From an uncultured Bacilli bacterium (GTDB taxonomy: Bacteria; Bacillota_I; Bacilli_A; RF39; UBA660), in assembly GCA_947626095.1 (NCBI GenBank), contig CANQQV010000019.1:1-27967 (forward strand): DNA of 27,967 bases, read 5' to 3'. Of the stretch, positions 1 through 13,015 are shown one piece after another. The notes beneath the pieces are model-generated. The model did no database searches and was not told where the DNA came from. It saw only the letters and a program-made list of their open reading frames with translations. The position numbers were made by a program, and so were the translations under genes. The stretch's first letter is position 1; each line of letters starts with the position of its first letter.

Positions 1-92
1 TGCTAATCCCATATATACAAGACCTGCATCATATGTGTTTGGAGCTTGTTCTTCTGGCTTAGCAGCAGGTTTCTTATTATCTTCTGCTTTTG
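1..92 (-). repeat. 3' constant anchor block, copy 1 (partial)
   Basis: Matches the corresponding parts of 2187-2326, 4393-4532 and 5725-5864. Confidence 0.95.
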
Positions 93-1156
93 ATGGATTT
101 ACTGTTACTACACCATTTTCAGTTGTAGTTGTTGCATTTCCAACTAGATCTTTTTCTGCTTCAGCAGCTTTTGTTATTCTAGTTCCTTCTTTTACATCTC
201 CAACGATTGAACCAGTGAATTTTCCACCTGTAATCATATTTTTATGATTTGCTAAGAATTCTTCATTACGAATATGTAATGCTGGAAGTTGATTTCCTTT
301 AGCATCCTTACCAGATGTAATTTTTCCATCAGTAATTTTGTATGTTCCTTTTGATCCATCGAACCATACAGCTTCATTATTTTCACTTGCTGATGTAATT
401 TCTCCACCTGCAATTGTTAAAGCATTTGTGTATTTTCCTGTTGGATCTTTAACATATATAGCACTATTATTACCAGTAGCTTTTAAAGTACCTGCATTAA
501 CATTTAAAGTACCGTTTACTAACTTAAATACATATGCATTTGAAGTATAAGTACCACCATTAACATTAACTACTGATTTACCAGCATCTAATACTATTAA
601 AGCATTTGATGCGGTTAAAGCTGTTGCTTTAACATTAGCATTTAAGTTGATAGTTAAATTTTCATCTTTATTTGGTTCACATGCAACGATTTCATTAGCT
701 ATTTCCCATTTACCATTAATATTAACTACAGTTTGTTCTGTTGCATCATCAACTTTAACAACTGAATTAGTATTTAATGCGCCTTTAACAGTAACGTCAC
801 TTGCAAAAGTTAATGTTGATGCTTTGTCTTTTGAGTTTACTACAAAGTTTTGAGTATGTGTTGTAGTATCAATAGTACCATTTGTAATAGTCACATTAGC
901 ACCTTCAACTTTTAATATACCACCAGTACCCATTGTTAAAGTTTGTTCATTTAAGTTAATTGTTACATTTCTGTTAATTACTGTTGTAGTAGTAACATTA
1001 AATGTTTTTCCATCTAGTAATACTATTTCTGCAGTTTCATCTTCTTTAACGTCAGCAATAGCATCTTTTAAGTTATTAAAGCATTGATATTGTCTACTAC
1101 CTGAATAATCTACATAATACCAATGTCCACTACATTCGTCATGTTTAACTGGTTCT

Positions 1157-1188
1157 GCACTAACAGTAACTACTGATAGTAATATTGC
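1157..1188 (-). repeat. 32-bp 5' cassette-junction repeat, copy 1 (identity to copy 4 extends to 1208)
   Basis: gcactaacagtaactactgatagtaatattgc on + strand; identical at 3427, 5660, 6944; encodes AILLSVVTVS(A) on minus. Confidence 0.97.
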
Positions 1189-1208
1189 ACATAGTGCAAA
1201 TTAAGGAT

Positions 1209-1231
1209 AAAAAAAGAAGGATTAAACTTCT
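1209..1231 (-). terminator. Weak intrinsic terminator after Rpn-like gene 1
   Basis: Minus strand AGAAG-tttaatc-CTTCT followed by a T run, overlapping the stop codon. Confidence 0.45.
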
Positions 1232-2120
1232 ATAATATCGGCATACTAAGTCGTTTGGATAATTCTTCTTTAGTCATACCACTTGATAGTAATTTATTTA
1301 TGATATTATTTCTTTCTTCTTTTATACCGGCTTGACGTCCTTCTTTAATACCTGCCTGACGCCCGTCTTTAAGTCCTTGTCTACGAGTCTTTCTTAATAC
1401 TCTCTTTTCTATATTTCTAGCTAATTCCTCTTTTACACCTTCAAGGTACAAATTATAATCATATGTTGGAAGTTCGTCATCTAATGCTATTTCTTTTATT
1501 TTTTCCATTACTCTCACTCTCTTTCTATTATCTTTAGCATATGAAGCCATCTCTTTATAACTTCTAGTAGCAAACATAGCAAAATCTTTATATATATCAT
1601 TATCATTAGTATAACATAGCTTTTTAAATGCTGGTAAAAAAATATTAATAATTTCTATATCTTCAATTGTATCATTTAATTTTGTATCTCTTAATTTATA
1701 TCTACTCATTGGACATTTCATATTACCACGATAATAAAAACCATTAAAATTTATTTGAATAACTCGAATTTTACCTTCATATTTATTTATAACGTTTCTT
1801 TTATACATACCACCAGCTATTTTATATAAATAACTATTATTTTTATTATTAGTAATTTTTAAATTAATCGGATTTAACTCGATATTAATTTTAGTTTGTT
1901 TATCAGGTGACTCTAATAGGATATCTACCCTACTTGATATATCATTTACTCTATCTATTGGAATCTCATTCATTTTAAAAGAATAATTACTAATATCTAT
2001 ATCAACAATATATAATATTAAATTTCTAAAATAATCTTTAATAAGTTGGTCATCACTTTGCCACAATGTTTTAAATACAATATCCTGCATTAAGGATATA
2101 AATTTTAATTCTTTTCTCAA
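1230..2120 (-). CDS. Rpn family (PD-(D/E)XK nuclease/'transposase'-like) protein 1
   Basis: LMQDIVFKTLW N-terminal motif, RVDILL...INIELN catalytic-type motif, IQINF strand, C-terminal GxxxG repeats (GRQAGIKE x2) and short HTH-like tail; TTG start with GGGAGG RBS. Confidence 0.8.
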   Translation of the reverse strand: MRKELKFISLMQDIVFKTLWQSDDQLIKDYFRNLILYIVDIDISNYSFKMNEIPIDRVNDISSRVDILLESPDKQTKINIELNPINLKITNNKNNSYLYKIAGGMYKRNVINKYEGKIRVIQINFNGFYYRGNMKCPMSRYKLRDTKLNDTIEDIEIINIFLPAFKKLCYTNDNDIYKDFAMFATRSYKEMASYAKDNRKRVRVMEKIKEIALDDELPTYDYNLYLEGVKEELARNIEKRVLRKTRRQGLKDGRQAGIKEGRQAGIKEERNNIINKLLSSGMTKEELSKRLSMPIL

Positions 2121-2142
2121 GGAAATAATCCTCCCTTCACTT

Positions 2143-2174
2143 TAATTATTCGCGATTGAAAGCCTATTTCCTTT
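2143..2174 (-). promoter_or_regulatory. SigH-like promoter motif upstream of Rpn-like gene 1
   Basis: Minus: AAAGGAAAT-11 nt-CGCGAATAATTA, resembling the SigH consensus AGGAWW-N11/12-GAAT; recurs at 4349-4380 and 20945-20976. Confidence 0.6.
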
Positions 2175-2186
2175 ATTTTTTATTTA

Positions 2187-2326
2187 ATTTCTTAATTTTC
2201 TAACAGAAACAACACTTGCACCGATTGCACTTAATGCTAATCCCATATATACAAGACCTGCATCATATGTGTTTGGGGCTTGTTCGTCTGGTTTAGCAGC
2301 TGGTTTCTTATCGTCTTCTGCTTTTG
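2187..2326 (-). repeat. 3' constant anchor block, copy 2 (140 bp)
   Basis: 2187-2276 (90 bp) is identical to the copies at 4393 and 5725, including silent sites; the remainder has a few substitutions. Confidence 0.95.
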
Positions 2327-3426
2327 TTGAAACTACTACTTTGTATGGATCTTCAGTTTTAACTGTGTAACCTTCAGCTACTAATTGATTAGTAACATCA
2401 ACAGTACCACCTTCAGTATCAACAACTTTAGCAATAATATTAGTTAAATATTTACCACCTGTTAAGATACCTTTAATTGCTGGAACAACAGTTGTTACAC
2501 CATCTTCTGTTTTAGTGAATGCGCCATCTAACTCAATTGCTGCTTTCATATTTTTACTGCTTTCAAAAGTACCATCAGTAATTTTATAAACAGCTTTTGT
2601 ATTGTTTGAATATATTGCATATGCAGTTTCACTAGCAATAGTTCCACCATTAACAGTTAATTTAGTCGCATCAGTTGTACCATTAACTATAATAGCGCCA
2701 TTACCTTTTGCGTATAAATCACCACTTGTTACAACTAATTCAGCACCATTAACTCTAGCAACAGCTTGATCACTATTAATAGTAGCACCATTAACAGTAA
2801 CAACAACGCCACCAGTTAGTGTCATTGCTTCTGCAGCTGTAGTATAAGTACCATTAACAGATACTGTTGATGCAGGATTTATTTTTGTAGCAGCAGCTGT
2901 TGAAGACATTACAGATACAATTGATGATACATTATATTTACCATTTAATGTAGCTTTAGCACCAGCTTTTGCTGTATATAAAACTTGTGCATTTGGTAAA
3001 TTGAAATCAGCACCTGTAACATCAGCAGTTCCTTCATTTACAATTATTTGATGAGTATAAGCTCCTGTCATTTTTAAGTTTTGTAAACTTAAACTACCAC
3101 CAACATTAACATAGAATGGTTGATAACTACTATCGTTAACAACTAATTCACCGTTTTTAACAGTTAACTTAGCATCTTTAGCAACATTATATTGACCAGA
3201 ACTAGCTGTAAGTTTATGACCATTCAAATCAATAGTTAATGTTTTAGTAATGCTTTTAACATCTCCTAAACTAGCATCAGCATATAGTGTTATTGTACCG
3301 CCGTCATTATAAGCAGCTGTCCAAGCATTACCTTGTAATAAGAAACCTCTGTCGCCAACTTTAGCAGTACAATCATTAGTTTCTTTAGCTGTTTTACCAT
3401 CAGCTGGTAATTCACATTCACCGGCT

Positions 3427-3458
3427 GCACTAACAGTAACTACTGATAGTAATATTGC
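3427..3458 (-). repeat. 32-bp 5' cassette-junction repeat, copy 2
   Basis: Exact match to the other three copies; similarity stops abruptly at 3459. Confidence 0.97.
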
Positions 3459-3467
3459 TTTAATATT

Positions 3468-4331
3468 TTATAGTATTGGCATACTAAGTCTTTTAGATAA
3501 CTCTTCTTTAGTCATACCACTTGATAATAATTTATTTATAATATTTGTTCTTTCTTCTTTTATTCCTTCTTTAATGCCTTCTTCACGACCATCTTCTCTT
3601 ATACTCTTTTCAACTGCTTTACGATAAGCTATACGCATAGCTTCTGTTTCATAATCTTCATTATCAATAATTCTTTTTTCTAAATCTTTCATTACACTTT
3701 CCCTTTCTTTATTACCTTGAATATATTTTTTCATTTCTTTAAAACTTTGAGCTGTAAACATTTTATAGTCTAATAGTTCTTCTGCATTTTTATTATAGCA
3801 TATATTAGATAATATTGGTAAATAAATATTAATTATTCTTATATTTTTTAAACTTCTATTACCTATTTTATTTTGAATACTATATTCATCAATATCTAAT
3901 TTGTTATATTCTTTATCAGCAAAAGCATTAATATTTACTTGGTCGATTAAGATATCTTTAGCATAGAAACTATCGCCTCGATTATAGAAATTACCAGCTA
4001 TTTTATGTAAATAAAATACATTACGTTTTAACCAATATCTTTTATCAACTCTATTTATTTCAATATTTAGTTTTCTTGATTTATCTTTAGATACTAAAAG
4101 AAAATCTAGTCGATTATCTTGACTGATAACTTTATCAGCAACTATTTCATTGTAATATAAATTAAAATTTCTAATATCATAACCGACAATTCGCTTAATA
4201 ACACGATTAATAAATTTTATAGTATTTGGTCCACCATTAAGCCATAAATATTTTAATACACGATCTTCAGTAAGAGGATGAAAATCATAGAACTCTAGTT
4301 TTATTTCTTTGGGAATATTTTGATTATTCAT
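3468..4331 (-). CDS. Rpn family (PD-(D/E)XK nuclease/'transposase'-like) protein 2
   Basis: PLTEDRVLKYLW, RLDFLL...LNIEIN, DGREEGIKEGIKEE repeats; same C-terminal tail as protein 1; ATG with GGGAGG RBS. Confidence 0.8.
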   Translation of the reverse strand: MNNQNIPKEIKLEFYDFHPLTEDRVLKYLWLNGGPNTIKFINRVIKRIVGYDIRNFNLYYNEIVADKVISQDNRLDFLLVSKDKSRKLNIEINRVDKRYWLKRNVFYLHKIAGNFYNRGDSFYAKDILIDQVNINAFADKEYNKLDIDEYSIQNKIGNRSLKNIRIINIYLPILSNICYNKNAEELLDYKMFTAQSFKEMKKYIQGNKERESVMKDLEKRIIDNEDYETEAMRIAYRKAVEKSIREDGREEGIKEGIKEERTNIINKLLSSGMTKEELSKRLSMPIL

Positions 4332-4348
4332 TAATTACCTCCCTACTT

Positions 4349-4380
4349 TAATTATTCGTGATTGAAAGCTTATTTCCTTT
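4349..4380 (-). promoter_or_regulatory. SigH-like promoter motif upstream of Rpn-like gene 2
   Basis: Minus: AAAGGAAAT-11 nt-CACGAATAATTA; near-identical to 2143-2174. Confidence 0.6.
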
Positions 4381-4392
4381 ATTTTTTATTAA

Positions 4393-4532
4393 ATTTCTTA
4401 ATTTTCTAACAGAAACAACACTTGCACCGATTGCACTTAATGCTAATCCCATATATACAAGACCTGCATCATATGTGTTTGGAGCTTGTTCTTCTGGTTT
4501 AGCAGCTGGTTTCTTATTATCTTCTGCTTTTG
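4393..4532 (-). repeat. 3' constant anchor block, copy 3 (140 bp)
   Basis: Direct comparison with the other copies. Confidence 0.95.
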
Positions 4533-5659
4533 TTGAAACTACTACTTTGTAGTTACCTTCTTCTTTTACTGTGTAACCTTCTGCAACTAAATCATCAGTA
4601 GCATCATAATTTGCACCACTTACAGTATTTTTTATAACACCGATAATATTATTCAAATATCTACCACCAGTTATAATATCTTTTTGATCAGCAATTAGTT
4701 TACCAGTTTTTACATCAAAGAATGCAGTATCTAGACTAATAGCAGCAGCATCTTTATCACCTTTAGCTTCATAAGTACCACCAGCTAAAACATATTTAGC
4801 TTTTGCATTTCTAAGTAATAAAGCATGTCTTCCAGTAAGTGTAGAAACTAATGTACCACCATTAACAGTTAATGAAGCAGTATCAGCAGTACCTTCAGTT
4901 TGTACTGGAGCACCATTTGAAGTTAAAGTACCACCATTAATAGTAACTTTAGCATTATATAACATAATTACATTAACAGCAGGAGCACCTTCTCCTGGTT
5001 TAGTATTAAATGTACCGCCATTGATTGTAACATTCATACCTTTGTCAGCTTGAATAGCAGTAGCAGTAGTAGTATATGTACCACCATTAACTATTACTTT
5101 TGCATCAGCTTCATTATAACCTTTATTATAACTACTTGCAGGACGAACAACAGTAGTAGCATCTACTTTACCATTTAATGTAACTGTAGAATTAGGTAAA
5201 ACATCTATAGCTACATGACCAGTACTATCAACTGTAGTATTAGCACCAACTGTTAATTCACCAGCAACAGTTGCTAAACCATTAGTAGTAGCAGTAACGT
5301 TTGTAGCATTTAAAACAAATTTACCACCTTTATTAACTGTAAACGCTTTTGCAACAACTACATTTTTAGCATTAATAGTTAATGAACCACCATCAGCAAC
5401 AGTTAATACACTAGAAGCTCCACCTAAAGTTAATTTAGCATCACCATACATATTGATAGTTACGTTCTTATCGATAGTTACATTTGAACCTGTTGCTATT
5501 GTTGCATCGTCATAGAATGTAACATTCTTACCATTAGTAAGTGCATCATTATATGCATCAAGAGCGCTACCATAACCTTCACCATCGATAGATGCATGAC
5601 ATGCATTATGTACTGTAAGATCATCAGGACTAAGCGTACAACCTGGTTGGGTATTAGCT

Positions 5660-5691
5660 GCACTAACAGTAACTACTGATAGTAATATTGC
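5660..5691 (-). repeat. 32-bp 5' cassette-junction repeat, copy 3
   Basis: Exact match; shares 5 further bases (acata) with copies 1 and 4. Confidence 0.97.
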
Positions 5692-5724
5692 ACATACTTT
5701 GTTTTCTTAAATCAATAATTAGTT

Positions 5725-5864
5725 ATTTCTTAATTTTCTAACAGAAACAACACTTGCACCGATTGCACTTAATGCTAATCCCATATATACAAGACCTGCA
5801 TCATATGTGTTTGGAGCTTGTTCTTCTGGCTTAGCAGCAGGTTTCTTATCGTTTTCTGCTTTTG
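5725..5864 (-). repeat. 3' constant anchor block, copy 4 (140 bp)
   Basis: Direct comparison with the other copies. Confidence 0.95.
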
Positions 5865-6943
5865 ATGGATTTACTGTTACTACACCATTTTCAGTAGTTG
5901 TTGTTGCGTTACCAACTAAAATTGCTGTTGCAGCTGCAGATCTTGTCCAAGTATCTGTTGCAGCATCAGTTTGAACATCACCAACTATTGCACCAGTAAA
6001 TGATCCACCACTTATCATATTAGCATGATTTGCTAAGAATGTTTGTGAAGCAATGTATAATGCTGGTAGTTGTTTTTTATCTTTTTTACCAGAAGTAAAT
6101 GTTCCACCAGTAATACTATAAGTACCAGTTTCTTCACCAGTTCCACTACCAAAATATAAAGCATATTTGCCATCAGTTTTTGTAGTAATATTACCAGCTG
6201 AAATATTTAATGTAGTAGTTAGGTTTTGACCAGGTTTTTCAACAACTATAGCATGTCCACCATTAGCTGTTAAATCTCCACCTTTAACATTTAAAGTACC
6301 ATTCTTAACCATAAAGACTGATTTATTAGATGTATAAGTACCACCTAATACATTAACTGTTGAAGTACCAGCATCAACTGCTACTAAATAATCAGATTGT
6401 AGGTCAGTAGCTTTAACATTAGCATTTAAATTTACAGTTAATTTTTCATCTAATCCATTACTACATGCAACAATTTCATGTTTAACTGTCCAAGTACCAT
6501 TAATATTAACAACGGTTGTATTAGATGCATTAGCAATTTGAATAGCTGATGTAGCATAGTAAGTTGCATTAACTGTAACGTCACTAGCAATTGTCAATGT
6601 AGATGCTTTTTCAGATGAATCAACAACGATATGTCCTTGATTAGCAATTAAATCTAGTTTACCATTCTTAATAGTAACATTAGCACCTTTTACTGTAACA
6701 TTTTGAGTACCAGTTACAGGTGTTGTAAGTTTATGACCATTTAAATTGATAGTTATATCTTTAGTAATATTTACTGGTCCACCTATAACCATATCTTTTA
6801 AAAGAACTAATTCACCATTTTCATTTTCTTCTAATGAATTTAATGCATTAGTAACATTATTACCACAAGTATATGTTCCGTTTCCATGATCTAAATACAA
6901 ATAGTTATTTGAACATCTACTAGGGCTGTCTACAGTACTTTCA

Positions 6944-6975
6944 GCACTAACAGTAACTACTGATAGTAATATTGC
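6944..6975 (-). repeat. 32-bp 5' cassette-junction repeat, copy 4 (52-bp identity with copy 1, to 6995)
   Basis: Exact match; the extension contains the palindrome TTGCAC-ata-GTGCAA. Confidence 0.97.
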
Positions 6976-6996
6976 ACATAGTGCAAATTAAGGATT

Positions 6997-7023
6997 AAAA
7001 AAAAGTAATGTTTCCATTACTTT
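6997..7023 (-). terminator. Intrinsic terminator at the upstream boundary of the array
   Basis: AAAGTAATG-4 nt-CATTACTTT hairpin with T8 run on minus, overlapping the oxidoreductase stop. Confidence 0.7.
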
Positions 7024-8411: not shown

Positions 8412-8437
8412 ATTCAAACCTCCTTAAGTATTTTACC

Positions 8438-8466
8438 AAAAAAAAGACTATTCTACTAGTCTTTTC
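8438..8466 (-). terminator. Intrinsic terminator after giant sigma gene
   Basis: AAAAGACTA-6 nt-TAGTCTTTT hairpin with T run on minus. Confidence 0.6.
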
Positions 8467-11400
8467 GATACAATAATCGTTCTTGAGGTGATAATTTTAG
8501 TTGAGTATCTAGAGTATCTAAGAGTTTATATAAATGATTGAGTTCTTTACCAGTTAGAAATTCTCTTTCACTGATATCATATATGGCCATTAATTCGTTT
8601 TTCGTACTTTTCTTTAAATCTTGACCATATTTTTTTAATAAAGCTATGACATCTTCTCTAGTTGCGGTACTAAAATCAAAGGCATTAGGATAGATATCTT
8701 TAATTAAATCATTAATTATATAGTATGATAAGTCTTCTTTTAAGCCATTGATATTACGACTACTAGTTATTTTATTAAAGTATCTTAAATAATATAGTTT
8801 ATGTTGATAAGACATATTTTGATGATTTCTTAAGTAATAAGCATAGATATCTTCAAATGAGAAAGTGGTTTCTTTAACGATACCATCTCTTAGTTTACAG
8901 ACACTGAGCATTAGATTACTAATAACTCGATTAATAGCGGATGTCTTTAAATCAAGGTTTAATTCCTTAATAATGGCTGGAACACTTTTGCGTTCGTCAC
9001 CATCCATACCAAATGCTAAGTTAAAGATTTTAATGGCTAAATCTAAATCACCATAAAATGGTAAATCAGGATTTTTAATAGCTTCTTCATAGTAAGCAAA
9101 ATCAAAAACTTTAGTATTATTTAAGTTATTCATAAGTTCATATAAGTTAATTTTAATTCTTTCCATAATACTAACCATTTGATGGAAGTTAACATGACAT
9201 TTAGTAGCTATTTCTTCATATGATAAACCGTTTTTATAGAAATCTTCTAATTTAATTCGATCACTAGGAGCAAAGTACTTTAATAATGGGATAATATCAG
9301 TATCATAATCGATTTTACCGTCAATTTCTTTATTTAAATATTTATAGATAGTAACGATAGCTCGTTGATATCTTCTTTTAAGACTACCTTTATTATCATT
9401 AAAGATACTAGTTAGTTCGTTAAGAGTTTTATATGGATAACCTTTAAGTTCAAATAGGTAACAGATTATTTCTTTTTCTTTAGGACTTATTGGTAGATGT
9501 TTATCATCTAATAGTTTATCTAGTTCTTGACGAGGAATATAAAGTAAATCAGGTTTTAAGATTCCTGCTTTACGGCTTTTAATTTTTCTAATAATGGTCA
9601 TATATTTATGCCAGTAACTTGCTTTAGTAAGTTTATATTTAGCTATTAGGCCATTATAATCTAGTTTAAGACCGGAAGGATTATAGCGATTAGTAAGACC
9701 TAAGTAGAAACTAATTAATTCTTTTTCAGAATCGTTTAAGACTGATTCACTTGAATGTTTATCGACTTCTTCTTTAATATCATTATCATCAATCGTAATA
9801 TCTTTAATTAAATAGCTTTCATATAAATTATTAAAATGTTTTAAAGCACTTTTAATAATATTAATATCTAGATTTAAGTAATCAGCAATATCTTCAGGCA
9901 TCATGTTTTCGACATAACGGCAGATAATTATTTTAGCTTCTTCTTTAGTTAGATTATTTTGATAATTTTTTAAGAATTCTTTTAATTTAGTTTTAGGAAT
10001 ATTTGAGGTAGTAGTAAGACCAAAACGGTAATTATCCATTTTTCGAATAGCATCGGTAATAATATTGGATATTCTAGTTTTATTTAAACCAGTTTTAGTA
10101 CTTATTTCATCGTATGATAAACCTTGAATAATAAACATATCAAGAATTTCTCTTGTTTCTTTAACAAAGTAATACTTAGGATTAGTAATATATTTTTTAT
10201 ATATATTTGGTTTAATTTCCACACGATAATTAGCTAGACCACTATATAGTTTAATGGCATAATCACGAGCTTCACGACATAAATCATGAGCTTTGATGTA
10301 GTCTAGTTTTAAAGTTTCAGCTATTTCACTGATAGAATAGACTTTGCCATTAACACCATAGTACATATCTAAAACTTGAATCCTTGAGGCACTTAGTTTA
10401 TCAGGATATTTCTTTTTTAATTGTTCGTACATTTCTTTAGTAAAAGTATTATCAAAGAATCTTAAGATATGATAGTAACTTCTTTCTAAACGATCAATTA
10501 AGAAATAGTAACGATAATATAAAGTTGAATCAGGATATTGGCTTTTAAATACACTTTTATCTTTTTGACCAAAGTAATATGTTTCTAAGAATAGTTGTTG
10601 CTCATCATTGAATTCGTTTTTTATTCTTAAATACTCTTGATATAACTTATCTTTAGGAACATTCATATCTTGATGTTTAAAACCAAATAAAGTTATATTG
10701 ATATCGATTAATAATTCTTCTTCCTTAAGACCTTTTCTAACTTTTTGGCCATAATATTTAGCGAGTAATCTTTCTTCATCAACTGTTAGATTATAGTCAA
10801 TGCTTTTAAAGAGATTTAAGATATCATCTAAACTCATACTACTATACTTAGCGGTTAGTTTTTGATAATCAATTTCTTTGGCACGTTTTGGAATATCAAT
10901 ATCAAAGATTTTAGTACCATAACTTTTAATAGTAGATAAACGATATTTTTGATATTTTTCTTGATTTTTAAATTTAGTTTGAAGTTTATTTCTTAAGCTT
11001 TGGTAAGCACTTTTTATATCGGCAACACTAACATTTAATTCATAAGCTAATTCTTCTAAGTTATAATTATATTTACTAAAGACTTTTAAATATAAGATTC
11101 TTTCTTCTAAGTATTCTAAATCAGCTTGAAGATATAAGTATTCAATTATTTTATCAGGATGTAACGGTTCTTTTTTTAAACGATTAACTCTTAGTCCTTC
11201 TCTTTTAGCAATATTATTATATGTACTAGTCATTTTAGTACTATTGGGACTCATATATATTTTTAACTTTTTTAGAGCTTTAGATTCTAATTGACGAATT
11301 CTTTCTCTAGTTAGATTAAAATAGGAAGCTGTTTGTTCTAAAGTATAGTCTTCCCCACTTAAAATACGATAATAAATAATAAAATAATGTAAAGGCGATA

Positions 11401-12088
11401 ATACTTCTTTTAAAGTTACTAATAAAGTATCATTGACCATGCGATTTAAGACATCGTCATAACCGGTTTCAGTACTAGGAATAAAATTGCCTAATTCAGT
11501 TTCAGAATCATCATCAACTGTTTGATCGATACTAACTGGAGTTTGATTGATTGCATCTCTGATGTTTTTTAAAGTTTCTTTACTGATATTAAGAGCAGTA
11601 CATATTTCTTCATCGCTTAATTTCTTACCACAAGAATTATTATCATTTATTAACTTTTTATAACGACGGATGGCTTCGATAAGATGAACTGGTTTTCTAA
11701 TGGTTGAATCTTTATCAGCAATAGCTCTAGTAATACCTTGTTTAATCCACCATACGGCATAAGTAGAAAAAGCACCCTTTTCCGGGTCATAATCTTCAAC
11801 GGCACGCATTAAACCCATATTACCTTCTTGAATAATATCTAAGATATCTAAATGTTTAATAATATTACGATAATGATTAGCCACACTAACTACTAATCTT
11901 AAATTACTATTAATTAGTAATTCACGGGCTTTATAATCACCAGTTTGATACTTTATTGCTAGTTCTTTTTGATCTTCACTAGATAGAATTGGATATTTAG
12001 AGATGTCGCGCATATATAATTTAAAGGCATTATCACTAAAGGTATTTACTAGTTCTTCGTCGGTTAATATTGTGATATCTTCATCCAT
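8456..12088 (-). CDS. Giant sigma-70 family protein: RpoD-like regions 1.2-4 plus ~930-aa tail of repeated region-4-like HTH units
   Basis: LYMRDISKYPILS (1.2), LINSNLRLVVSVA..DIIQEGNMGLMRAVEDYDP..FSTYAVWWIKQGITRAIAD (2), PVSID (3), YTLEQTASYFNLTRERIRQLESKALKKL (4). ATG at 12088 has AGGTG RBS (track start 12115). Confidence 0.85.
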   Translation of the reverse strand: MDEDITILTDEELVNTFSDNAFKLYMRDISKYPILSSEDQKELAIKYQTGDYKARELLINSNLRLVVSVANHYRNIIKHLDILDIIQEGNMGLMRAVEDYDPEKGAFSTYAVWWIKQGITRAIADKDSTIRKPVHLIEAIRRYKKLINDNNSCGKKLSDEEICTALNISKETLKNIRDAINQTPVSIDQTVDDDSETELGNFIPSTETGYDDVLNRMVNDTLLVTLKEVLSPLHYFIIYYRILSGEDYTLEQTASYFNLTRERIRQLESKALKKLKIYMSPNSTKMTSTYNNIAKREGLRVNRLKKEPLHPDKIIEYLYLQADLEYLEERILYLKVFSKYNYNLEELAYELNVSVADIKSAYQSLRNKLQTKFKNQEKYQKYRLSTIKSYGTKIFDIDIPKRAKEIDYQKLTAKYSSMSLDDILNLFKSIDYNLTVDEERLLAKYYGQKVRKGLKEEELLIDINITLFGFKHQDMNVPKDKLYQEYLRIKNEFNDEQQLFLETYYFGQKDKSVFKSQYPDSTLYYRYYFLIDRLERSYYHILRFFDNTFTKEMYEQLKKKYPDKLSASRIQVLDMYYGVNGKVYSISEIAETLKLDYIKAHDLCREARDYAIKLYSGLANYRVEIKPNIYKKYITNPKYYFVKETREILDMFIIQGLSYDEISTKTGLNKTRISNIITDAIRKMDNYRFGLTTTSNIPKTKLKEFLKNYQNNLTKEEAKIIICRYVENMMPEDIADYLNLDINIIKSALKHFNNLYESYLIKDITIDDNDIKEEVDKHSSESVLNDSEKELISFYLGLTNRYNPSGLKLDYNGLIAKYKLTKASYWHKYMTIIRKIKSRKAGILKPDLLYIPRQELDKLLDDKHLPISPKEKEIICYLFELKGYPYKTLNELTSIFNDNKGSLKRRYQRAIVTIYKYLNKEIDGKIDYDTDIIPLLKYFAPSDRIKLEDFYKNGLSYEEIATKCHVNFHQMVSIMERIKINLYELMNNLNNTKVFDFAYYEEAIKNPDLPFYGDLDLAIKIFNLAFGMDGDERKSVPAIIKELNLDLKTSAINRVISNLMLSVCKLRDGIVKETTFSFEDIYAYYLRNHQNMSYQHKLYYLRYFNKITSSRNINGLKEDLSYYIINDLIKDIYPNAFDFSTATREDVIALLKKYGQDLKKSTKNELMAIYDISEREFLTGKELNHLYKLLDTLDTQLKLSPQERLLYRKD

Positions 12089-12127
12089 AAAAAACACCTG
12101 ATTCTTATTATACAATAAAAAAAAGAA

Positions 12128-12991
12128 TTATAAACTTTTTTTTAAGCTATTTAATTCTTCTTCAAACATTGTTTTATGGTTAGGACCATATATACCTAAG
12201 GTATTTAATAATTCAATTGTAGTCATTTCATGATTTAGGACTTTTTTAACTAATCCCATAATTAGTTTTTCATCAGCTAAATACATATGGTATAGTATTA
12301 AAGCATAATAGAAACTATTTAAATACTGACCAGTACGCGTAGCAATTATTTTATAAAGATCTTTATCTTTAAATTCCTTTTTCATTATTTGACGAACCCT
12401 AGTATATTTTTTCTTAGAATCACTCATTAAATACATACGGGCATTAAGCCATGTCTTATATATTTCCTGATAATTCTTTTTGGCTATTACAAATTCGTAG
12501 AATAAAGGAATAACATCTCCAACTCTGCGTGCATTAATATATTCTTGATAATTAGTTTCTTTTATAGAATGAATATGTTCATGGCCAAGAAATATTGGGG
12601 CTAATTCAGAAATATGCATTGGAACTTTATAATGTTGAACTACTCCTGAATTCGTTACAACTTCTTTCTTTTTAGCATCATAATTATAAGTTATTTGACA
12701 AGAATATAATAAATCATCTGTATAAGCTACTATACATTTAGTTCTTCTAGCTATATCTTTAACTTTAGTTGCATAATCTTCACCAAACAACATAAGATCA
12801 TCACTACTTAAATCAATAGCTTGGGATAATTGATAAGTTCTATCAGCCATTGACGCATTAGCATTATAATCAACAAGTCTACTAGCAACATAGCTAGATA
12901 CTGTCTTATCAGTATCCGTAAAGCAATTAAAACCTAAGGCATCAAATGCCTTTTTTTCTTGTACAAGTTTTTGCTTCATCACACTATCCAT
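12128..12991 (-). CDS. Hypothetical protein with HExxH zinc-metallopeptidase-like motif
   Basis: LGHEHIHS followed by DVIPLFYE; ATG at 12991 has GAGGG RBS (track start 13015 abuts the -10 box). Confidence 0.6.
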   Translation of the reverse strand: MDSVMKQKLVQEKKAFDALGFNCFTDTDKTVSSYVASRLVDYNANASMADRTYQLSQAIDLSSDDLMLFGEDYATKVKDIARRTKCIVAYTDDLLYSCQITYNYDAKKKEVVTNSGVVQHYKVPMHISELAPIFLGHEHIHSIKETNYQEYINARRVGDVIPLFYEFVIAKKNYQEIYKTWLNARMYLMSDSKKKYTRVRQIMKKEFKDKDLYKIIATRTGQYLNSFYYALILYHMYLADEKLIMGLVKKVLNHEMTTIELLNTLGIYGPNHKTMFEEELNSLKKSL

Positions 12992-13015
12992 AAATAATCC
13001 CTCACTAGTTCGCAT

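Follow-up and report, generated by a model that had tools for sequence, protein, structure and literature searches.

A giant sigma-70 factor with a long array of region-4-like helix-turn-helix units in uncultured gut Bacilli

In textbooks, a sigma factor is a compact specificity subunit of two to four domains with a single domain that reads the -35 element and, to our knowledge, the characterised factors of groups 1 and 2 end at region 4. How, then, is a sigma factor to be understood that runs on for 925 residues past this point? The question is raised by a 27,967-nucleotide stretch of DNA from an uncultured Bacilli bacterium (GenBank assembly GCA_947626095.1, contig CANQQV010000019.1, positions 1 to 27,967; hereafter the window), whose minus strand holds, at 8456..12088 with the stop codon included, the gene of a 1210-amino-acid (aa) protein of the sigma-70 family. 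A first, sequence-only reading of the window had described this protein as a sigma-70 factor with a long array of region-4-like helix-turn-helix (HTH) domains, a description borne out by Pfam, by profile-profile comparison, by two confident AlphaFold2 models and by the fold types that Foldseek retrieves. The giant protein is a genuine alternative factor of the sigma-70 family, conserved in uncultured gut Bacilli with small, low-GC genomes, and its array can be assigned a function with graded confidence only.

A complete sigma core and its C-terminal array

The minus-strand frame is open from a TTG at 12115 to the stop at 8456-8458 and contains no in-frame stop. The ATG at 12088, preceded by AGGTG and a 6-nt spacer, gives 1210 aa, a length shared with homologues, and an N-terminus that agrees with the N-terminus of the homologue consensus; by these sequence features it is the likely start codon. 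The coordinates and length first proposed thus stand, with one uninterrupted open reading frame (ORF); the strand, which had been left out, is the minus strand. As the genome is metagenome-assembled (1.6 Mb on 34 contigs, with an estimated completeness of 91% and contamination of 7.9%), the gene might be an artefact of assembly or annotation, two genes fused by a missed stop or frameshift. However, contig pieces from two public runs (X1 and X2) run through the core-tail junction (near 11233) without a gap and show 0-1 differences, these runs being ones that may include the source sample and so give no independent support for the ORF; in a related strain (95-97%) from a second study, the pieces listed carry substitutions only and 0 gaps. 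The sole 2-base deletion listed lies at 9847 in a single contig of depth 44; this depth far exceeds the 4-10 of the organism, and the contig is probably from another one. A stop or frameshift separating core from tail, which the sequence-only reading had named as fatal to its proposal, is absent from the junction in the assembled pieces, and the same uninterrupted architecture recurs in many independent assemblies. Since contig pieces cross the junction and many homologues share the architecture, a fusion artefact is ruled out for all practical purposes, its likelihood being negligible.

Residues 1-282 form a complete sigma-70 core, with regions 1.2, 2, 3 and 4 all over the Pfam cut-offs, as the earlier description of a complete RpoD-like core had it. 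On the minus strand, like all features of the protein given below, these are region 1.2 (residues 23-52, 11933..12022; PF00140, Sigma70_r1_2, 30.3 bits against a cut-off of 22), region 2 with its YAVWWIKQ motif (residues 58-127, 11708..11917; PF04542, 66.2 bits against 24, and 71 bits in the whole-genome scan; also aligned with RpoD), region 3 (residues 158-207, 11468..11617; PF04539, 29.0 bits against 25.3) and canonical region 4 (residues 222-282, 11243..11425; identified by Pfam and by alignment with RpoD, with four helices in the AlphaFold2 model). The region 4 model PF04545 (Sigma70_r4) scores 97.3 bits over the whole protein, against a cut-off of 24.1, with its best stretch at 230-276. 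The Pfam scan suggested beforehand as a check returns Sigma70_r4 in 4 stretches of the whole protein and Sigma70_r4_2 in 3.

The core is nearest to the RpoD/RpoS-type models of NCBIfam (E about 1e-62). Like RpoD/SigA and RpoS of groups 1 and 2, it has regions 1.2, 2, 3 and 4 and the -10/-35 motifs; it differs from them by the 925-aa C-terminal array, by the absence of region 1.1 and by scores below the equivalog cut-offs (NF006666 for RpoD, 201.3 against 572; TIGR02393, 210 against 354; NF004208, 196 against 555). The best region-2 match of the genome is a separate RpoD of 364 aa on contig C8, encoded directly downstream of a primase-like ORF, whose identity (dnaG) is a reading of its sequence and not the outcome of a family scan. 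The giant core is 37% identical to this RpoD (BLASTP), keeps the region 2 motif FSTYA.WWI.Q and has a region 4.2 recognition helix, TRERIRQ, identical to that of the housekeeping protein. In housekeeping sigma factors, the STYA.WWI.Q and TRERIRQ residues make the -10 and -35 DNA contacts; judging by these motifs, the giant sigma should read ordinary -10 and -35 elements. The separate RpoD and the retention of the motifs at 37% identity mark the giant protein as an additional primary-like sigma factor that coexists with a normal rpoD, and not as the housekeeping one: it scores under the RpoD/SigA equivalog cut-offs and is not the only primary sigma of its genome. A housekeeping gene typically sits in a dnaG-rpoD operon, an arrangement seen, if the primase-like ORF is read as dnaG, at the 364-aa RpoD.

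Other sigma genes are numerous in these bacteria. Ten Sigma70_r2 matches were counted in the 1.6-Mb window genome, a high number for its size, and a Clostridium sp. CAG:1000 scaffold (L086, 5710-10749) carries four tandem RpoD-like paralogues of 387-435 aa, each with an N-terminal extension of ~95 aa; this tandem array suggests an expansion of sigma factors in related small-genome gut bacteria.

The tail of 925 aa is all-helical in the AlphaFold2 model and built of four-helix units. Modelling of residues 222-1210 from a 91-sequence alignment gave a mean predicted local distance difference test (pLDDT) of 89.7 and a predicted template modelling score (pTM) of 0.65, so that the expectation that the tail folds into HTH repeats is met by confidently predicted four-helix units. 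Past the canonical sigma-4, the recurring unit of the model consists of four helices of roughly 10, 12, 8 and 19 residues, and the borders of the units were drawn from these helices; the eight motif strings listed in the sequence-only reading coincide with units A and D to J delimited in this way. Self-BLAST of the 1210-aa protein returns no internal matches; the repeats are too diverged for it and profile comparison was needed. Unit profiles were therefore cut as sub-alignments from a 77-sequence family alignment of full-length homologues and compared with hhalign. Against canonical sigma-4, unit A scores 96%, F 91%, E 90%, G 88%, H 86%, I 74% and D 65%; comparisons within the set of units D to I give 68-97%, and an all-helical control, sigma-2, scores 0-2% against every unit. 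The alignments of the units with sigma-4 fall on the HTH, in the register '..TLeEIA...git..ri.....a..Ki'.

Along the chain, unit A (residues 305-375, 10964..11176) is sigma-4-like, with an hhalign E of 1.9e-9 and no Pfam r4 match when scanned alone. It is followed by two divergent four-helix modules, B (400-470) and C (472-545), at 10454..10891, of which B is akin to K (95%) and to X (about 90%) and C is an orphan with no detectable relative. A run of seven sigma-4-like units comes next. Unit D (546-618, 10235..10453) reaches 65-79% with sigma-4 and 91-96% with E, F, G and J, and Pfam r4 at E 0.19. Unit E (620-692, 10013..10231) scores 24.2 bits with Pfam r4 and 23.2 bits with r4_2 on its own, and 90-93% in hhalign; unit F (694-764, 9797..10009) has r4_2 at E 7e-4 and about 91%; unit G (765-843, 9560..9796), with a basic recognition helix (+7), has 88-89% and no Pfam match alone. 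Unit H (846-922, 9323..9553; 78-86%, Pfam r4 E 0.067) is the most conserved, with a mean top-residue frequency of 0.71 and the pattern HLPIS.KE.EIICYLFELKGY ... RRYQRAI, and unit I (923-990, 9119..9322) has 74-87%, r4_2 at E 0.072 and HTH_38 at E 0.012. Unit J (992-1070, 8879..9115) is sigma-4-like via transitive links only: it scores 95-96% against D (up to 96%, E 6e-9), 81-87% against E and 3-7% against sigma-4 itself. The C-terminal helical modules X (1075-1112) and K (1115-1210) occupy 8459..8866.

Single-sequence models see little of this kinship. With units scanned singly, E alone passes the r4 cut-off of Pfam (24.2 against 24.1 bits); D, H and I match weakly (E 0.019-0.19) and A, G and J have no r4 match. 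In NCBIfam, the sole matches of the tail alone are the sigma-4 ends of sigma models, the best (E 2.4e-8) on unit E, and a family-specific sigma-4 hidden Markov model (HMM) run against the family found mainly units A, E and I and few others, a result superseded by hhalign. A feature search of the ESM Atlas with the tail gave 0.85-0.87, under the lead level of 0.9, to clusters that are unnamed or sigma-like.

Structure comparison returns mainly folds of this type, with no Foldseek match at E <= 0.001. In a separate model of units E-F (pLDDT 91.9, pTM 0.67), 36 of the 44 Foldseek rows listed against the PDB are sigma or RNA polymerase-sigma entries by title, and the other 8 are DNA-binding HTH proteins, namely KorA, UPF0122 and ArdK. 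Target-normalised template modelling (TM) scores of 0.62-0.70 are obtained for isolated sigma-4 domains (3hug, 3vep) and for the KorA-operator complex, the latter (5clv_M) at TM 0.70 over 61 columns and 2.6 A; the UPF0122 entries 1xsv and 1s7o also match, and Pfam KORA matches unit E weakly. The best matches of the 989-residue model are weak alignments, with high root-mean-square deviation, to whole sigma chains. KorA (the TrfB repressor), UPF0122/YlxM and ArdK are stand-alone sigma-4-like HTH proteins; they are single domains of 60-105 residues, whereas the giant sigma chains eight or more, and all their Foldseek E values exceed 0.01. On the evidence of the profiles, the tail arose by ancient serial duplication of the region-4 HTH domain, and the architecture is almost certainly that of a core followed by eight sigma-4-like units (A and D-J) and three or four divergent modules (B, C, X and K).

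Conservation, variants and distribution of the family

Across 77 full-length homologues, the tail is about as conserved as the core, with peaks at residues 661-690, 841-930 and 991-1020 that equal region 2; sigma-2 itself is among the most conserved parts of the family alignment (top-residue frequency 0.69). The whole giant protein appears from this alignment to be under strong purifying selection. A word-indexed search with the tail returned 97 proteins, nearly all of about 1200 aa and from 77% down to 29% identical, from sources named 'Candidatus Coprovivens sp.', 'Bacilli bacterium' and 'Firmicutes bacterium'; the public records name these homologues only as sigma factors or hypothetical proteins. 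Of 1.84 billion cluster representatives searched exhaustively with HMMER, 228 match at E <= 1e-3, of which 188 do so at <= 1e-10 and 144 even at <= 1e-30; the representatives stand for clusters at 50% identity, of which the family has about 190-230. Among the 150 matches listed, most are 1160-1235 aa long. The matches align with the tail over a single collinear segment, some 900 residues long and starting near residue 280-320 of the protein, and this collinearity holds in homologues down to about 24% identity; the number and order of the units are therefore fixed. By this measure the array is an old, diverged duplication series and not a variable repeat array, which answers the question of repeat number that the sequence-only reading had left to a survey of homologues: the 188 representatives at E <= 1e-10 are collinear and have a fixed number of units.

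In a pooled set of 229 proteins, a mix of 90% and 50% cluster representatives, family HMMs detect units E, H and K in 188, and 157 of these 188 keep sigma-2, sigma-3 and sigma-4 together. The variant forms comprise proteins of about 1113 aa without sigma-3, proteins of about 1500 aa in which the block from sigma-4 onward is duplicated, proteins of 960-1000 aa that begin at a degenerate sigma-4, and one member with a head of the extracytoplasmic function (ECF) type. The orthologue at one further locus (L029, 1674-4871; G127:C13) is interrupted by a single in-frame stop, which falls within the recognition helix of sigma-4. This form was considered as a natural two-gene split and set aside, since such a stop is either a nonsense change or an error. 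The interrupted orthologue is followed by two more sigma genes (287 and 221 aa). A search for shorter relatives of units D-J returned 3 proteins, two on contigs of 1.4-1.6 kb, which are probably fragments, and one of 634 aa on a 10.4-kb contig; it gave no evidence of small stand-alone versions of these units.

The family is confined and patchy. A 12-sequence tail profile matches 15 of 401 genomes of the order at E <= 1e-10 (12 long matches and 3 short ones, the latter over the first 180 or so positions only), as compared with 12 of 401 for a single-protein query. The profile matches fall in 12 of 146 genera, and within some genera in 1 of 9 or 1 of 11 species; none of 350 genomes of the class outside the family of the window matches the tail, one further genome being unscorable, and tblastn of phage and plasmid collections gave no match to it. 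The window genome has one copy of the giant sigma, and the carrier genomes are small, about 1.0-1.6 Mb. Public runs that hold the stretch come from rabbit gut or gut metagenomes in two studies, and no RNA run holding it is among those listed. The three short matches (G347:C16:13890-14210, G350:C1:39908-40285 and G108:C1:43031-43528) cover only the first 110-180 positions of the tail profile, that is the linker helix and unit A, and lie in frames of about 410-430 aa, two of which contain stop codons; these may represent sigma factors extended by only one sigma-4-like unit, and so possible evolutionary intermediates.

Possible functions of the array

Holoenzyme structures place sigma-4 on the beta-flap at the -35 element; a chain that leaves the C-terminus of sigma-4 would therefore point to upstream DNA. 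The reading favoured here, if tentatively, is that of an alternative sigma factor with a built-in, multi-site reader of upstream DNA. The core would bind RNA polymerase and read ordinary -35/-10 elements; from sigma-4, the array would emerge at the upstream side of the promoter and place several HTH units on the DNA upstream of -35, so as to confer a promoter selectivity that the housekeeping-like core cannot give. The binding to RNA polymerase, the DNA binding by the extra units and the upstream geometry are all inferred. Two recognition helices, RISNIIT..IRK of unit E and ..RRYQRAI of unit H, rank with the best-conserved stretches of the protein, on a par with sigma-2; where region 4.2 has its DNA-contacting residues in the alignment, both carry K, R, S, N or Q. 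In units A, E, G, H and J the recognition helix has a net positive charge (+3 to +7), as against 0 to +1 in the others and -4 in B, and the isoelectric point of the tail is 8.8 versus 5.2 for the core. It is this conservation and polarity of the E and H helices, the basic character of the five helices and the basic tail that favour a reader of upstream DNA.

Several observations weigh against it. No extra unit keeps as such the specific residues by which region 4.2 contacts DNA, and the family-average charge of several units is about zero or negative (B -4.2, J -1.7, F -1.0, I -0.8). The high pTM and the short, conserved aromatic linkers suggest, as far as the model goes, that the array is a rigid packed body, some of whose recognition helices may be buried. 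Neither the E-F model (best E 0.018) nor the 989-residue model has a Foldseek match in the PDB at E <= 0.001, and no repeated upstream or intergenic DNA motif that could be a long target was found in the genome. Lastly, 31 of the 188 members with units E, H and K are missing at least one head domain according to the family HMMs, some of them being clearly fragments; headless forms also occur on long contigs (e.g., a 991-aa protein on a 188-kb contig) and, in one locus (L024), the tail is present with no sigma-2 within the locus. The headless forms on long contigs imply that the tail can persist without a sigma head.

The first of these points raise the possibility, to which a lower but appreciable probability is given, that the units have lost DNA binding and that the array serves as a scaffold for proteins or as an auto-regulator. 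It would then be a rigid solenoid of helices with protein ligands, and would set when or where the sigma factor is active. Candidate partners would be surfaces of RNA polymerase such as the beta-flap (the array acting as a decoy), the sigma factor's own domains (a built-in anti-sigma) or other regulators. Such a solenoid fits with a model confidence that is high across the linkers (pTM 0.65 over 989 residues), with the conservation of the aromatic-rich linkers YRFG, DLPFYGD and FDFDYY, with the fixed order of the units in all long homologues, with the loss of the region 4.2 contact residues from the extra units and with the neutral or acidic character of several of them. The sigma-4 fold is, besides, a known protein-binding surface, and several of the top structural matches (3hug, 3vep and 6dxo) are sigma-4 domains in complex with an anti-sigma. 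However, units A, E, G, H and J have recognition helices that are both basic and polar, those of E and H are highly conserved, and no partner gene is kept beside the sigma gene in distant loci. A complex prediction of the core (1-215) with the tail (300-1084) gave a score of 0.00 and a mark of 0.32, and is counted neither way.

The headless forms bear on another explanation, in which the tail is the functional entity, a multi-HTH chromosomal DNA-binding protein (of nucleoid type, or a global repressor or organiser) with a dispensable or vestigial sigma head. Members with a missing or reduced head (960-1000 aa; ~1113 aa without sigma-3; the ECF-like head; the copy with an in-frame stop) speak for it, as do the forms of about 1500 aa, whose duplicated block starts at sigma-4. 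This explanation is nonetheless unlikely: all three head domains are kept in 157 of the 188 members, sigma-2 ranks with the best-conserved parts (0.69), and the DNA-melting and -35 residues are intact in the window copy.

Within the reading as an upstream DNA reader, a bolder version can be entertained. TAL (transcription activator-like) effectors, mTERF and Myb repeats are rigid tandem-repeat DNA readers; the analogy is functional only, as their repeat folds differ and bear no sequence relation to the units of the giant sigma, and it lies in the idea that many similar helical modules in a fixed order could track DNA. A rigid, sigma-4-derived HTH train might, in the manner of TAL effectors, read ~50-100 bp of upstream DNA without separate activators, with headless paralogues competing for the same long sites. 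This version is speculative and rather doubtful.

The locus and its place among sigma factors

Upstream of the gene, the minus strand has a TATAAT box (12107-12112) and the AGGTG ribosome-binding site (12095-12099), together at 12095..12112 and 5' of the ATG. Ahead of the sigma ATG, a T-tract is conserved and the block GTATAATAA-N4-CAGGTG is identical in the window and in its two closest relatives, both 'uncultured Bacilli bacterium' metagenome-assembled genomes (L033 and L034), while the DNA farther upstream of the sigma gene in L033 is unrelated to the window; this selective retention indicates that the giant sigma gene probably has its own promoter. An extended -10 (TGn) promoter was considered for it and rejected, as TG abuts TATAAT directly and the promoter scan marks 'no'. 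At the other end, an AT-rich hairpin of 10 bp with a U-run lies over the stop codon (8437..8466, minus strand) and is a candidate intrinsic terminator (-10 kcal/mol, z-score -3.3, with 0 of 200 shuffles equally good). The hairpin gives substance to the terminator of its own that the sequence-only reading had ascribed to the gene; the consensus terminator scan did not list it, and to that extent the claim stays qualified.

The two closest relatives keep the order Obg - GNAT - HExxH protein - sigma - FAD (flavin adenine dinucleotide)-dependent protein. Compared with the window, their Obg is 90-93% and their FAD protein 91-96% identical, versus 64-73% for sigma, which therefore evolves faster than its housekeeping neighbours. 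In L033, an insertion of ~3 kb with a 342-aa ORF (2914-5973) separates the HExxH gene from the sigma gene, and ~30 nt ahead of the sigma start are kept despite it. In 10 distant loci, no neighbours are in common with the window.

The HExxH neighbour, a protein of 295 aa with an HEHIH motif encoded directly upstream of the sigma gene (12128-13015, minus strand), brings in the idea of a polyprotein or pro-sigma whose tail would be cleaved, perhaps by this protein, to free an active sigma factor of 280 aa. Proteolytic activation of pro-sigma factors is established for sporulation sigmas, and the HExxH gene stays beside the sigma gene in the two closest relatives (53-63% identity). But the neighbour has no Pfam, NCBIfam or PADLOC family, and the 10 distant loci lack it as far as about 8 kb from the sigma gene, so that a link between the two is not conserved past the closest relatives and was discarded. 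Nor would a disposable piece be expected to match the conservation of the core over 925 residues, and the AlphaFold2 model has no disordered or low-confidence hinge at the core-tail junction. With a unit order that is collinear over ~900 residues and linkers that are short, conserved and confidently modelled, the processed polyprotein entertained in the sequence-only reading is highly improbable.

The same reading had placed the sigma gene one gene away from a cassette array and called a functional link unproven. The array lies in window 1-7016 on the minus strand and contains four paralogous surface-protein-like genes (1..933, 2184..3227, 4348..5451 and 5719..6900). No homologue of the cassette proteins occurs in the flanks compared in the two closest relatives (up to 6 kb upstream; downstream ~6 kb in L033 and ~0.4 kb in L034, whose contig ends ~0.4 kb downstream of the compared locus), or in the 10 distant loci. 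As the closest relatives keep the synteny without a cassette homologue in these flanks, the proximity carries no weight, and a link of the sigma factor to the array was dropped as unsupported.

The genes of the cassette array have in common a C-terminal block of ~45 aa, made of a Pro/Lys-rich spacer, NTYDAG, a hydrophobic helix and a basic tail, and a conserved 63-nt block that lies 40-100 nt upstream of each cassette ORF and codes for a piece resembling a signal peptide, with no in-frame start codon. The 63-nt block is common to about 14 intergenic regions of the genome, 4 of them in the window. This 5' block is the only sizeable intergenic repeat family, and it was rejected as a target site for the sigma factor, being signal-peptide-like coding sequence rather than a promoter array. 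By its sequence, the arrangement resembles a multigene surface-protein family with silent or variable cassettes. Interleaved with the cassettes are two paralogous genes on the minus strand, 1230-2120 (296 aa) and 3468-4331 (287 aa); the former matches TIGR01784 (Rpn, recombination-promoting nuclease/putative transposase) weakly (E 4.4e-6, 26.7 bits against a cut-off of 52.1) and the latter has C-terminal sequence in common with it. It is conceivable that these two genes act in recombination for cassette variation.

How far does the giant sigma resemble systems already described? ECF sigma factors with C-terminal extensions (ECF41, CorE-type and OrbS) likewise carry, as far as the parts of the sources consulted describe them, a regulatory or sensory C-terminal module of their own (PMC3426412, PMC4937300, PMC9023288). 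They are two-domain proteins with short, unrelated extensions, whereas the giant sigma is extended by copies of sigma-4. As regions 1.2 and 3 are present in it, the giant sigma is not an ECF (group 4) factor. MzaA of the MZA anti-phage system is likewise a long protein with a sigma-70 module and its models match the giant sigma (NF041931, E 1.2e-61; PADLOC MzaA, E 2.4e-37), by their sigma part only (positions 460-702 of 726 and 423-658 of 683, respectively). At 209.5 bits against a cut-off of 800, the giant sigma is not an MzaA, and the extra part of MzaA is N-terminal, that of the giant sigma C-terminal. A cyanobacterial survey reports 'non-canonical' sigma-70 families with core patterns that 'harbor duplicated essential domains' (PMC11119718); in the portion of its main text consulted, supplementary tables aside, no array of eight or more region-4 copies is described. 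In open-access full text, supplements aside, no description of a sigma factor with multiple region-4 domains was found, and the layout of a core with about eight extra region-4 copies was likewise not found described for any studied sigma factor.

With this family, the range of designs known for bacterial transcription initiation would widen. Should the array bind DNA, it would be a natural model of sigma-tethered upstream recognition, and its modular HTH scaffold might be of use in engineering; should its ligands be proteins, it would represent a new kind of built-in sigma control. Reading in the manner of TAL effectors, if true, would mean that genome-reduced gut Bacilli have evolved a new mode of promoter recognition in bacteria. 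In either case, the giant sigma is a lineage-restricted and patchily distributed regulator in abundant, uncultured gut Bacilli, in which gene regulation is almost unstudied.

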